Assembly (NCBI GenBank): GCA_965649205.1
Contig: CBFGJV010000009.1
Span: forward strand, 18,661-82,660
DNA length: 64,000 bases
Origin: a candidate division WOR-3 bacterium
GTDB lineage: Bacteria; Hydrothermota; Tepidihabitantia; Tepidihabitantales; Tepidihabitantaceae
Direction of reading: 5' to 3'
Position 1 is the stretch's first letter; each line of letters opens with the position of its first letter. Made by a program: the position numbers and the translations under genes. Below are positions 56,507 through 61,287 of the stretch, one piece after another. Under the pieces are notes generated by a model. The model had not been told where the DNA came from, ran no database searches, and saw only the letters and a list, made by a program, of their open reading frames with translations.

Positions 56507-57649
56507 ATGGATTTCAGTCTGACTGAAGATCAGAAAATGATACAACAGATGGCCCGCGACTTTGCCACCAACGAACTAGAGCCAAAAGCCGCCGAACTGG
56601 ACAAAACCGGCGAATTTCCCCACGACTCCATCAAAAAAATGGCAGAACTGGGCCTGTTGGGAATGGTAGTTCCCGAACAGTATGGCGGCGCCAGCTTCGG
56701 CTTTATCAGCCTGGCCATCGCCGTGGAAGAAATCTCGCGCGCCTGCGCTTCTACCGGGGTCATCACCGCGGTCCACAACTCGCTGGCTTCGTGGCCTATC
56801 GCCAACTGGGGCACCGAAGAACAGAAGCAGAAATACTTGCCCAGAATGGCTGCCGGGGAACTGCTGGGTGCATTCGGGCTCACCGAGGCCAACTGCGGTT
56901 CTGACCCGGCTGGAATGGAAACCAAGGCCGTGCTCTCCGGCGACTACTATATCCTGAACGGTTCCAAGCGGTTCATCACCAATGGCGGAGCCGCAGACGT
57001 GTTTATCGTCTTCGCCAAGACCGACCCGGCCGCAGGCAGCCGCGGAGTCACCTGTTTCATCGTGGAAAAGAACTTCCCCGGCTTTTCTGTGGGGAAGCAC
57101 GAAGACCTGCTCGGTCTGCGCGCCACCTCCAACTGCGAACTCATCTTCGAAGACTGCCGAGTGCCCAAAGAGAACGTGCTGGGTGAGGTCAACCAGGGGT
57201 TCAAAATAGCTATGGGCACGCTGGATGTGTCGCGCATCGACATCGGTGCGCAGGCAGTAGGCATTGCCCAGGCGGCGCTGGACAAGGCTCTCGCTTATTC
57301 CAAGGAACGCAAGCAGTTTGGCCGGCCCATATGCGAGTTTGAAATGATTCAGGAAAAACTGGCCCAGATGCATTCCCGCATCGTCGCTGCCCGGCTGCTC
57401 GTGTACAACGCCGCCTACCAGAAGGAAGCCGGCAAACAACGTTTCTCCGTAGAATCGGCGATGGCCAAGCTGTTCGCTGCCGAAACTGCAGTATATGTCA
57501 CTAAAGAAGCCGTGCAGATTTTCGGCGGCTATGGATATACCAAGGACTACCCGGTGGAGCGGTATTACCGCGACGCCAAATGTATGGAAATATACGAGGG
57601 TACCTCGGAAATCCAGAAGATAGTCATCGCCCGCGGTCTCTTGGCTTAG
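56507..57649 (+). CDS. Acyl-CoA dehydrogenase (butyryl-CoA dehydrogenase-like)
   Basis: [51 protein letters not shown]. Confidence 0.93.
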
Positions 57650-58340
57650 TGGTCAGCTTAGACTGCTGTCGCAGCGAGTCTACCACCACGAGCAGATGAG
57701 ACACAGACCAGTCTGACACTGCGCCCTTTTCGTCTCGCGCCCGGCAGCGGATAAAGAATTCGCCCGTATCACGCCACATGTGCATCCTCGTCACCCTCGT
57801 GCCGCTACCCACCCACGCTCCCCACTCCGAAGTATCCGCATCTCCTCCGCCCCAGTGAAACTGCAACGCTACCCGGTCGCCGTTACTGTCCGCAGCCGCA
57901 GCCGCAAACTCATACACTCTGCCAACCACTCCGCTATCCGGCCCGCTGGGAGCGGCCGGCGTAAAAGGCGGCAGGTTTACGGTATCGGCTATAACAATGC
58001 GGTGCCAACTGGACCACATAGAAACCACCCCTTTGTCATCTCTAGCCTGGACTGAAACTCGATAGTCACCGGGAAGGTGCCAGATATGCTGCCCGCGCGC
58101 CGTATCCCCTGAGGGAAATAGCTGGGTCCAGTTCGAGGTATCGCCGTCATCCCAGTCAAATCTTACGGACACCATCCCTCCTTCCGGATCAGTGGCTGTA
58201 GCCGCAAAACTGTACTCCTGCGCCACTCTGCCTCGCACCGGACCTTGCGGCGCGGCAGGCTGATACGGCGGCTGATTCTTTGTACAGCCGACCAACCCCA
58301 AAGCACCAACCAGCAAAACTCTCCACACACTGCTATTCAT
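57624..58340 (-). CDS. Lipoprotein with two PKD-like domains (paralog of 45527)
   Basis: Lipobox [30 protein letters not shown]. An upstream ATG at 58436 overlaps the porX stop. Confidence 0.72.
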
Positions 58341-58432
58341 GATTGACTCCAATTCTGCTAACATTCTATCATCCATTTCTCCCCTCTCCAGCTCCTCCGG
58401 CGCCTGCTTGTTACCTAACCCTGCGCTTGTGC

Positions 58433-59959
58433 TCATCTCGGTCTGAGTGTAGCCACCGGGACTACCATCTCACCAAGCGAAATGCCGCCATGCTGGTAAC
58501 TCATCTTGTAGGTCTTCTCATATTGTTTCGGCTTGGTCGGGTAGATGAAGTAGTAGTCAGAGAAAGCTATGGCCAAATTGGCAGAAGCGTGTTCTGTCGG
58601 CAAAAAAAACACCGCAGGGTCGCGCAACGTCAAAGCCGTGCGTTCGTCCACCCGCAAAGCGCCGCCGTATTTGTAGCGGAGATTCGCCGAAATCTCTCTG
58701 CCGCCATAGATAGCGGTCGGCCGCCTGACCCGGATGAATCCGTGATCGGTCGTAATTACCACCCGACAGTCCTTGCGGGCCAGAGACCGCAGCAACGCGA
58801 AAGGCGCAGAAGAAGAAAACCATACCCGGGTCATCGCCACCAGAGCCTGATCATTGGGGATAATCTCGTCCAGCACCTGCGTGGTCTTTACCGAATGGAT
58901 GAGCTGATCCAGGAAGTTGAACACCAGTGCGGTGAATCTGACGCCAGAATCAAGCAGAGCGCCCCGTTCCCGAGCCAGGTCTTCACTGGAAGGAGCCTTG
59001 ACAAACGTAAACCGACCGGTAAACCGGAGCCGGCGCAGATACTCCGTGAGCAACTCCTTTTCAAAACGGTTCTGCCCGGTCTCCTCTGCTACCCAATACT
59101 GGGGATAGCGCCGTTGTATCTCCAATGGCAACAAACCGGAGAAAATGGCATTACGCGCATAAGGCGTAGCGCTAGGTAGAATTGCGCAATAGTAACGGGT
59201 CTCCACCTCGTAGTACTCCCGCAACAAAGGCACAATCGCATCCCACTGGTCCAGCCGCATGGAGTCGAAGAGAAAAAGGTAGGTAGGTTTTTCTTCCCAG
59301 TGCGGCCGGACGAACTTCTCTATCACCTGATGTGACAGCACCGGCGTTGTCTCCGCCCCGGAGCCGCTACCGCTCAACCATCTGCGGTATTCGGCCAAGA
59401 TGAACCGCGTAAAACTGTCGTTTGCCTGCTGCCAACGTTCTTCCTGGATTTCATTCAGGGCCGCATCTCCGTAGCGAGCGAGTATACTCTGCCAGTGAAA
59501 AAGGCTGCGGCAGTAATCTACCCACTCCGGCCAACTGGCAGGTTGCCGTACCTCGTTCATCGCCGCTATAAACTGCTGCCCCATTCTGTCTGCCACCAGC
59601 TTACGCTTTTCCAGCAGACGTTTGAGCACAGCCAGCAATTGCGCTGGAGAAAAAGGCTTGATAAGAAAATCGTCCACCAGTTCTCCGTACGCCTCATTCA
59701 CCAACCCCTCTTCATCCGACTTGGTCACCATCGTCACCAGCAAATTCGGGTCAGTCTGCTTCAGACGCCGCAGAACCTCCAGCCCCTGCATACCGGTCAT
59801 CATCTGATCCAATAACACCAGGTCATATTCCTTCTGCCTGACCAGTTCCAGACCATCCGGCCCGTTAGTAGCCGTGTCCACCTCATAACCCTTTTCCTGC
59901 AGCGTGTACACGAACGGCCGCAGCATATCTATCTCGTCATCAATCCAGAGTATTCTCAT
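58433..59959 (-). CDS. porX: PorX-like response regulator (receiver + PglZ/alkaline-phosphatase domain)
   Basis: ILWIDDEID, LLDQMM..MQG, TKSDEE; PglZ metal motifs FDSMRLDQW, SATPYARNAIF, NFLDQLIH, TTDHG, YQHGG. Confidence 0.88.
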   Translation of the reverse strand: MRILWIDDEIDMLRPFVYTLQEKGYEVDTATNGPDGLELVRQKEYDLVLLDQMMTGMQGLEVLRRLKQTDPNLLVTMVTKSDEEGLVNEAYGELVDDFLIKPFSPAQLLAVLKRLLEKRKLVADRMGQQFIAAMNEVRQPASWPEWVDYCRSLFHWQSILARYGDAALNEIQEERWQQANDSFTRFILAEYRRWLSGSGSGAETTPVLSHQVIEKFVRPHWEEKPTYLFLFDSMRLDQWDAIVPLLREYYEVETRYYCAILPSATPYARNAIFSGLLPLEIQRRYPQYWVAEETGQNRFEKELLTEYLRRLRFTGRFTFVKAPSSEDLARERGALLDSGVRFTALVFNFLDQLIHSVKTTQVLDEIIPNDQALVAMTRVWFSSSAPFALLRSLARKDCRVVITTDHGFIRVRRPTAIYGGREISANLRYKYGGALRVDERTALTLRDPAVFFLPTEHASANLAIAFSDYYFIYPTKPKQYEKTYKMSYQHGGISLGEMVVPVATLRPR

Positions 59960-59986
59960 AGCCTCTTCCCGCCAACTTGCATCTGC

Positions 59987-61246
59987 TCATTCCTTCACCA
60001 CCGGCAGGTAAACAGAAAAAACCGTTCGGCCCTGTCGCGATTCCTTCAACACCAGTCTGCCCCGATGGTAGTCTTCCACAATCCTCTTCGCCAGGGCCAA
60101 TCCCACGCCCCAACCGTATTTCTTGGTAGTCACTCCCGGCTGGAATATCTTTTCCACCTTCACGCCCTCGCCCGTGTCTGTAACCTCTATCTCCAACATT
60201 CTCCCTCCCTCGGTCAAGCCTGTGCGTACGCCTATTTCTCCTTCCTGCTGACCTATGGCGTCCACACTGTTCTTGAGCAGATTCTCCAAAGTCCAGCACA
60301 GCAGTACCTCGTCCACGTGAACGCGAGGATCGGCTTCCAACTGCAACCGGAAACTGATGCTCCGCGGAGACCGACGTTGCACAAACGAAACCGAACGTTT
60401 GAGCATCTCGCCTACTCTCTGCGGCGTCAGCTTGGGCGGCAAACCTATGCGACTGAAACGGTCCAGCACTTCCTTCATCCTTTCCATATCCTGGCCCATC
60501 GCCTCCATCACTTCTTTGTCTCCGTTACAACGCAGCATCTCCATCCAGGCGGTAAGCGAGGACAAAGGCGTGGCCAACTGGTGAGCTGTCTCCTTTGCCA
60601 GTGCGGTCCAGATATGCTCCTGCTCCCTGCGCTTGTACACCAGTATCCCCCATACGCCAATAGTGACAAAACCGACGAGAAGAAACAGCTGCAATACAGA
60701 GAACAACCGCAGCGCGCGCACCGAGGCGGTCAAACTGGAATTTAACCGTCGCAGCACCAACGTGGAATTAGACAGCCCGTAATGAATCTTGCCCAAATCC
60801 CGGGAAGAATCGTCCTCCGGTACCATCAGGGGAATCGGCTCGTGCTGTTTGTCCAGTTCCTCTACCCATCTGCGCAGTTCTTCCGGCGTCGGATCCTCCA
60901 CCGGCAGATTGCGGTAGGAAACCGGATTGCCCAGCCGGTCGGTGATAATCACCGGAAAATCTATCTTCTTTATCACCTCCTCAAAAATGATGTCCAATTC
61001 AGGCGAACCGCCCGGCGAAGGCTCTGTCACCCTGCTCATGAACTTGGCATATATATTGGAACGCAACTGCGTGTCGCTCTCCAGCTGGGCAGACAGATTT
61101 CCCACATAATCCTGCCACAGCCGCGACAACCGCAACAACAGAAACTGAGAATAGAAAAACCAGAAACCTCCCACCACCAGTATCCCCAGAACAAAATAGA
61201 GCTGCAGAATTCTGGCGCTGAAACCGATTTTGGACGAAAGACGCAT
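59987..61246 (-). CDS. Membrane sensor histidine kinase
   Basis: Two TMs around a periplasmic domain; H-box AKETAHQLATPLSSL, ENLLKN, DTGEG, GWGVGL. Confidence 0.92.
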   Translation of the reverse strand: MRLSSKIGFSARILQLYFVLGILVVGGFWFFYSQFLLLRLSRLWQDYVGNLSAQLESDTQLRSNIYAKFMSRVTEPSPGGSPELDIIFEEVIKKIDFPVIITDRLGNPVSYRNLPVEDPTPEELRRWVEELDKQHEPIPLMVPEDDSSRDLGKIHYGLSNSTLVLRRLNSSLTASVRALRLFSVLQLFLLVGFVTIGVWGILVYKRREQEHIWTALAKETAHQLATPLSSLTAWMEMLRCNGDKEVMEAMGQDMERMKEVLDRFSRIGLPPKLTPQRVGEMLKRSVSFVQRRSPRSISFRLQLEADPRVHVDEVLLCWTLENLLKNSVDAIGQQEGEIGVRTGLTEGGRMLEIEVTDTGEGVKVEKIFQPGVTTKKYGWGVGLALAKRIVEDYHRGRLVLKESRQGRTVFSVYLPVVKE

Positions 61247-61258
61247 CAGACCTGCCTC

Positions 61259-61287
61259 ATACTAGAACCAAAGCCCGATACTGTCAA
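61259..61287 (-). promoter_or_regulatory. Promoter TTGACA-17-TAGTAT for kinase-porX
   Basis: Near-consensus; ends 12 nt before the kinase ATG. Confidence 0.65.

Follow-up and report, generated by a model that had tools for sequence, protein, structure and literature searches.

Which histidine kinase serves PorX, a regulator of type IX secretion systems (T9SS), is disputed, and a locus in candidate division WOR-3 at which porX directly follows a sensor kinase gene raises the question of what gene order can say about the pairing. The locus lies in a window of 64,000 nucleotides, by which we mean the whole stretch of DNA analysed, corresponding to contig C9:18661-82660 of a WOR-3 genome (G000) of 2.15 Mb that is 98% complete. 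In Porphyromonas gingivalis the genes for PorX and its proposed kinase PorY are located about 1000 genes apart (PMC5005315), and the passages cited from five papers treat the two proteins as orphans (PMC4800418, PMC5005315, PMC9757075, PMC10951265, PMC11320123). Phosphotransfer from PorY to PorX has been demonstrated with the P. gingivalis pair only (PMC4800418), and portions of two structural papers express doubt that PorY is the kinase of PorX, or the only one (PMC9757075, PMC11320123).

An earlier note on this DNA had suggested that the locus may identify the cognate kinase of PorX and, in a PKD-repeat lipoprotein encoded further downstream, a periplasmic accessory of the regulator. Our comparisons indicate that the locus is very probably a dicistronic porY-porX operon, encoding a T9SS regulatory two-component system in a WOR-3 bacterium. 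Both orthologues are intact, their inheritance is strictly shared, and most WOR-3 genomes have the two side by side.

PorX and the adjacent kinase

Judged by its sequence, the regulator is a true, intact PorX. It scores 525 bits against NCBIfam model NF052313 (cut-off 300), with residues 2-508 placed on profile positions 2-513, and 524.6 bits in the profile search of the genome. It can be aligned over its full length with P. gingivalis PorX (7PV7, E 8e-106) and with Flavobacterium johnsoniae PorX (PDB 8TED and 8P6F, E 2e-103), the latter having, as compared by sequence match only, the same three-domain layout. The window residue D51 aligns with the phospho-acceptor D58 of the P. gingivalis protein. 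Likewise, D232, T265, D351, H355, D405, H406 and H490 align with D239, T272, D361, H365, D415, H416 and H500, the seven metal-coordinating or nucleophile residues reported for the P. gingivalis PglZ domain (PMC9757075, Schmitz et al.). The motifs DSMR, SATP, DQLIH, TDHG and QHGG, which the earlier note had listed as intact, are all found, and their ligand residues match the published ones by alignment. D51 and the seven PglZ residues are unchanged across eight PorX sequences from the same order, as are receiver residues D7/D8, T79 and K101 across eight WOR-3 PorX sequences. PorX is described as having no DNA-binding domain and as carrying a PglZ domain that acts as an oligonucleotide phosphodiesterase (PMC9757075). 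From residue conservation only, we infer that the window protein would share this activity and would dimerise upon phosphorylation.

The PglZ domain also relates the protein to the PglZ proteins of bacteriophage exclusion (BREX) systems, with which it shares this alkaline-phosphatase-superfamily domain and the same metal ligands. However, its match to BREX_PglZ_3 (77 bits) falls far under the cut-off of 250. In addition, the window protein has an N-terminal receiver, is 508 residues long as opposed to the more than 600 of the BREX proteins, and has no BREX genes nearby.

The kinase closely resembles published descriptions of PorY. It has two hydrophobic segments, at about residues 13-34 and 180-204, and no HAMP domain. 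The candidate phospho-acceptor H222, within AKETAHQLATPLSSL, is positioned 19 residues past the second transmembrane segment (TM2) and is followed by 197 residues to the C-terminus. PorY, as published, is a 395-residue protein with transmembrane segments at 14-36 and 149-173, a periplasmic loop of about 115 residues and a phospho-acceptor at H193 (PMC5005315). It thus shares with the window kinase the two transmembrane segments and the lack of a HAMP domain, and the corresponding spacings are 20 residues from TM2 to the histidine and 202 from the histidine to the C-terminus. Bacteroidales orthologues of the kinase have a median length of 386 residues, a loop of 113 residues and 201 residues from the histidine to the C-terminus. 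The window kinase differs from P. gingivalis PorY in a family-specific loop insertion of about 29 residues (145 residues in the window kinase, 116 in sister families).

Database searches place the kinase in a single orthologous family. Five other genomes of the Fibrobacteres-Chlorobi-Bacteroidetes (FCB) group were searched, namely those of Mesonia (Flavobacteriaceae) and Melioribacter and metagenome-assembled genomes from Bacteroidales, Rhodothermaceae and Cloacimonadales. Each contains one strong match (E 1e-52 to 1e-58, 33-37% identity) that extends into the periplasmic loop, whereas the next-best kinases (E 7e-16 or weaker) align in the kinase core only. In the reciprocal search the Bacteroidales protein returns the window kinase (E 1e-52, next match 6e-14). 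The H-box helix ETAHQ..TP..S...W is invariant in an alignment of nine sequences, in which sensor motifs are conserved too, and KETAHQ is present in 117 of 120 WOR-3 and 120 of 121 Bacteroidales homologues among the matches listed. A phylogeny of the kinase had been proposed in the earlier note. In a quick maximum-likelihood tree, 51 of these KETAHQ-type kinases fall into one clade (Shimodaira-Hasegawa-like approximate likelihood-ratio test 100, stem 1.68), separate from 13 further kinases that these genomes encode, and the Bacteroidota-type kinases cluster together inside it. An ESM Atlas search with the kinase returned generic kinase clusters only, and no Porphyromonas or PorY-named entry is present among the 120 matches listed each for the window kinase and its Bacteroidales orthologue.

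Taken with the co-occurrence described below, the orthology, H-box and tree place the kinase in the PorY-type family, and the idea of a new, non-PorY partner for PorX is not borne out. The kinase appears to be the WOR-3 orthologue of this family, and we strongly infer from these comparisons that it corresponds to PorY.

The periplasmic loop of the kinase, about 145 residues long and possibly PDC/PAS-like, was modelled over residues 36-180 using 36 orthologous loops. The model (predicted local distance difference test score 83.5) starts with a long helix, continues with a sheet of four strands that has helices at its sides, and ends in a helix running into TM2, which is the order of elements expected of a PDC/PAS-like sensor. 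The best whole-domain likeness is to the periplasmic domain of LuxQ (Z 7.2, root-mean-square deviation 4.9, 129 residues aligned), with a VIA-align Z that is only middling and below the safe level. The next is the periplasmic domain of WalK (Z 7.1, root-mean-square deviation 4.1, 111 residues aligned), likewise below that level. Foldseek, run with the model on the PDB, gave no match at E <= 0.001 (best E 0.045). The modelled loop may be a small sensor of PDC/PAS-like type. In the window's kinase family (loop at 60707-61141), the roughly 29 extra residues are located directly after the first transmembrane segment, and the loops of the sister families compared (loci L013, L016-L018, L020, L026, L030 and L031) have 114-129 residues. 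The Cloacimonadales orthologue (L113:868-2505) is 545 residues long and seemingly has a duplicated periplasmic sensor module.

The gene pair sits outside Bacteroidota yet within the FCB group, as the earlier note had surmised for its position relative to Bacteroidota. The nearest named homologues of the kinase, among the matches listed, have 61-71% identity and bear the label candidate division WOR-3. In the kinase tree, loci with Stahlbacteria or TA06 in their titles group in the window's class, and a genome of that class is identical to one of these loci.

Co-inheritance and linkage of the two genes

We surveyed the two genes in 121 Bacteroidota genomes (in the GTDB sense) and 81 WOR-3 genomes, 202 in all. 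These genomes are related to one another and the results are accordingly given as counts, not as a statistical test. PorX is present in 96 of the 121 Bacteroidota genomes, and a kinase orthologue is found in those same 96 with at least 350 bits, the next-best kinase scoring 130 bits. None of the 25 PorX-less Bacteroidota genomes has a kinase match at E <= 1e-30. The pattern is repeated in WOR-3, where 64 of 81 genomes contain PorX and the same 64 contain the kinase (at least 220 bits), while in all 17 PorX-less genomes the best kinase match reaches at most 139 bits. That 139-bit match, in genome G197, reaches profile position 65. Overall, both genes are present in 160 genomes, neither in 42, and a single one in none. 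Within the window's order PorX is found in 40 of 41 genomes. Co-occurrence with PorX was, according to the sources cited, the original basis for defining porY (PMC10951265, PMC5005315), and the WOR-3 genes resemble P. gingivalis PorXY in being co-inherited in T9SS-bearing phyla.

The pair is also physically linked across the lineage. Among 29 loci from relatives of the same order the kinase gene is directly upstream of porX in 28, and the remaining one (L019) ends about 360 bases upstream. A genome from the same genus contains the linked pair with 77% and 81% identity. The spacers between the two genes in the relatives measure between -1 and 63 bp, apart from a single one of 183 bp. All 26 of the best-scoring loci at phylum level, a biased sample, carry the adjacent pair, and by coordinates the genes are adjacent in 50 of the 64 PorX-bearing WOR-3 genomes. 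Among named records adjacency is seen in all four WOR-3-like loci, in nine of twelve Stahlbacteria/TA06-like loci, and in the single Zixibacteria locus. It is seen in none of the 61 remaining named loci (Ignavibacteria, Kapabacteria, Chlorobiota, Bacteroidales, Flavobacteriaceae, Rhodothermaceae, Neomarinimicrobiota, Cloacimonadales and others), two of which have less than 200 bases upstream. The earlier note had made conservation of the linkage in related genomes a test of its proposal, and for the kinase and porX the linkage is conserved.

Adjacency is found in none of the 96 PorX-bearing Bacteroidota genomes. A single contig carries both genes in 29 of these, at distances of 9.6 kb to more than 1 Mb, and the other 67 have them on separate contigs. 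The window thus differs from the P. gingivalis arrangement in that its genes are adjacent, with the kinase first and 27 bp between them.

Local layout and the downstream PKD gene

The arrangement at the locus is summarised in Table 1, and agrees with the earlier description of a kinase with two transmembrane segments and an H-box, a 27-bp gap, PorX and a following PKD open reading frame (ORF). The 27 bases run from the kinase stop codon TGA to the porX ATG, which is preceded by GGGAAGAGG. The candidate promoter (61287-61259) matches the consensus at 10 of 12 positions. At its 3' end the PKD ORF shares 26 bases (57624-57649) with the 3' end of the acyl-CoA dehydrogenase gene, which is convergent to it.

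Table 1. Features at the porY-porX locus, in window coordinates
Feature	Position	Strand	Remarks
YgiQ-family radical SAM gene	61311-63344	-	TIGR03904, 743 bits
Sigma-70-like promoter match, TTGACA-17-TAGTAT	61259..61287	-	Within 64-bp gap after ygiQ; 12 bases 5' of kinase ATG; consensus match only
Predicted porY-type sensor histidine kinase, 419 aa	59987..61246	-	Pfam HisKA/HATPase_c
Spacer between kinase and porX, 27 bp	59960..59986	-	Putative ribosome-binding site GGGAAGAGG
porX, 508 aa, with a receiver (D51), a helical linker and a PglZ phosphodiesterase domain	58433..59959	-	Response_reg and PglZ
PKD-repeat lipoprotein ORF, 270 codons	57624..58436	-	Two PKD matches; outside conserved module
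Acyl-CoA dehydrogenase gene	56507-57649		Convergent to PKD ORF

The first ATG of the PKD ORF does overlap the porX stop codon, as ATGA, in keeping with the earlier observation. The likelier start is nevertheless M33 at 58340, which lies 95 bases beyond the stop codon of porX and has GGAG before it and a lipobox signal peptide after it. A promoter-like site with an extended -10 element is positioned upstream of this start at 58390-58363. The PKD gene has its own putative ribosome-binding site and possibly its own promoter, and transcription from porX may extend into it or may not.

Searches with tblastn detected no PKD homologue on the downstream side of porX at the 29 loci of relatives, the 26 phylum-level loci or the 78 named loci, nor within 3.4 kb in the same-genus genome. 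The genes downstream of porX vary among the relatives. At three loci (L012, L019 and L032) porX is followed within 10-90 bases by the acyl-CoA dehydrogenase gene, again convergent, and in the window the PKD gene stands in between. At L030 and L031, which represent one family in the order, porX is followed by an ORF of 168-181 residues and then by a uvrA-like ORF, as identified by its N-terminal sequence. PKD-repeat paralogues are scattered in the genome, at window positions 45527-46162 and at C2:96723-98322, C3:59104-60039 and C11:59679-61918. Because the gene is absent from this position in the relatives' loci and in the same-genus genome, we read it as a recent, lineage-specific local insertion of an unrelated member of a multi-copy family, not as a conserved accessory. 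The PKD part of the linkage proposed earlier is thus not conserved.

Secretion context, alternatives and significance

The window's genome contains further putative components of a T9SS. SprA is detected with 475 bits (cut-off 200). A PorU-like gene (382.6 bits, cut-off 420) adjoins the top-scoring PorV-like gene (93 bits against a cut-off of 250) at C26:5255-9370, an arrangement resembling the porU-porV pairing in Bacteroidota. The 2.15 Mb contain 111 matches to C-terminal sorting domains (CTD), most of them above cut-off, corresponding to about 100 CTD cargo genes. Three of the matches are in the window (C9:36398-36640, 61073-61315 and 71816-72019, in contig coordinates); the earlier note had linked its proposed system to CTD-bearing proteins of the window. 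The CTD-type proteins of the window include a beta-helix/Kelch protein of 1831 residues (17732-23227) and a 1012-residue M14 carboxypeptidase (42404-45442), the C-terminus of which matches Pfam FlgD_ig. The only GldK-like gene, at C5:100910-101965, was considered as a motor-ring locus and rejected, having no gldLMN-like neighbours. By tblastn the genome has only three kinase-like and three receiver-like places, making PorY-PorX one of about three two-component systems. The places are on C9, at C14:29607-30251 and 37183-37539, and at C20:7237-7443 and 14204-14500, the receiver proteins besides PorX being those at C14:37183-37539 and C20:7237-7443.

Several observations weigh against reading the locus as a porY-porX operon for T9SS regulation. 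The label PorY derives from co-occurrence, architecture and the literature description of the P. gingivalis protein (PGN_2001), and no PorY-specific NCBIfam model matched the window kinase or five orthologues. The two genes are apart in 14 of the 64 PorX-bearing WOR-3 genomes (G226, G234, G210, G193, G223, G202, G198, G214, G183, G228, G170, G176, G188 and G232), mostly in the families with the most divergent PorX, and three of the twelve Stahlbacteria/TA06-labelled loci are without adjacency. The promoter is a consensus match only. It is found where the earlier note placed it, but the four such sites in 57000-61800 are not in excess of the 2.2 +/- 1.4 in shuffles. GldL and GldM (PorL and PorM) were not detected in the window's genome with TIGR03513, TIGR03517, PF22827 and PF12081, which leaves one proposed PorX output, binding to PorL, without a visible target. 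Finally, all 17 WOR-3 genomes that lack PorX and the kinase (families f11, f16, f17, f24 and f25) retain SprA, indicating that the pair is not required for keeping the translocon in WOR-3. The GldL models also find nothing in Melioribacter, Rhodothermaceae, Cloacimonadales, Zixibacteria, TA06/Stahlbacteria, Marinimicrobia and four WOR-3 genomes, and since they miss other T9SS genomes too, the GldL/GldM result cannot be read as absence.

These points bear on three alternatives. That the locus encodes a three-gene system, in which the PKD protein would assist the kinase in the periplasm or share in its sensing, is suggested by the position of its ORF on the same strand after porX with overlapping codons, and by its predicted export as a lipoprotein. 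There is a possible parallel in P. gingivalis, where the surface protein PorA reportedly works through an unknown mediator at a point upstream of PorY (PMC7712824). We nevertheless consider such a system very improbable, given the lack of the gene after porX in every other locus surveyed, the acyl-CoA dehydrogenase gene occupying its place at three of them, the paralogues elsewhere in the genome, and a likely start that is set back from porX with its own GGAG and promoter-like site. Scarcely more credible is that the adjacent kinase is a different one, recruited to PorX in WOR-3 and so uninformative about PorY. The published doubts about PorY as sole PorX kinase (PMC9757075, PMC11320123) would leave room for this, as would the lack of a match to any curated PorY model. 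Against it, exactly one member of this kinase family occurs in every PorX-bearing Bacteroidota genome sampled and none in the PorX-less ones, which is the type of co-occurrence by which the cited sources say porY was first defined (PMC10951265, PMC5005315). The architecture agrees with the published PorY figures, and P. gingivalis is said to have just five or six kinases (PMC9757075). Gene neighbourhood has likewise been used to propose UbK1, a TsaE-family kinase whose gene is close to that of PorX in P. gingivalis and which is reported to phosphorylate PorX on Tyr79 (PMC13241743), but this is another class of kinase acting at another phosphosite. By eye, no TsaE-sized gene is present among the ORFs adjoining porX in the window or in the 1.5-kb flanks of the relatives, a comparison in which no model search was made.

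The remaining alternative accepts a true PorY-PorX pair and assigns its main output in WOR-3 not to the T9SS but to envelope signalling or to the turnover of oligonucleotides such as nanoRNA, pGpG or oligoadenylate. This would suit a regulator described as a phosphodiesterase without a DNA-binding domain (PMC9757075), the 17 of 81 WOR-3 genomes that have SprA with neither gene, and the undetected PorL/PorM homologue. We regard it as unlikely, though clearly less so than the other two. Across the 202 genomes PorX occurs only with this kinase, and all of those genomes belong to Bacteroidota or WOR-3, phyla with T9SS components. The window's genome combines about 100 CTD cargo genes with very few other regulators, and the GldL/GldM misses are uninformative.

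We therefore return to the porY-porX operon as the preferred reading, for which a signalling route can be proposed by analogy with the work on P. gingivalis (PMC4800418, PMC9757075). The membrane kinase would sense a periplasmic cue through its small, possibly PDC/PAS-like loop and autophosphorylate on H222, from which the phosphoryl group would pass to D51 of PorX. Phosphorylated PorX would then dimerise, switching on the PglZ oligonucleotide phosphodiesterase, making contacts with downstream partners, or both, and these partners would tune the expression or activity of the T9SS.

What the locus offers is a two-component operon of the ordinary sort, from a known system and with a textbook gene order, and it does not represent a new kind of system. 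Its value consequently lies in the comparative evidence that it brings to a live dispute. The suggestion that the operon may identify the cognate kinase of PorX holds insofar as the linkage bears on which kinase serves PorX, but the kinase that it supports is the already proposed PorY and not a new one. The full-text literature searched, with subscription journals outside its coverage, yielded no description of a linked porY-porX pair, nor of a T9SS in WOR-3 or Zixibacteria.

Co-inheritance and linkage together provide independent comparative support for the contested PorY-PorX pairing, and the dozens of naturally linked pairs offer material for co-variation analysis of the kinase-receiver interface. 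With three kinase-like genes and about 100 CTD cargo genes in the genome studied here, the small WOR-3 genomes also present a simple background for questions of PorXY sensing and control. More broadly, we lean slightly towards the view that PorY-PorX is an ancient, strictly co-inherited FCB module whose original form was the operon. This form would have been kept in WOR-3 (and in Zixibacteria, as represented by one locus) and broken up at the base of Bacteroidota, with whole WOR-3 families keeping SprA after losing both genes. If this is correct, PorY would be settled as the cognate PorX kinase by comparative genomics alone. The SprA-bearing WOR-3 genomes without PorX already run counter to the remark, in the source cited, that PorX is always present where there is a T9SS (PMC9757075), and the module would, contrary to that remark, be a dispensable regulator and not an obligate part of the T9SS.

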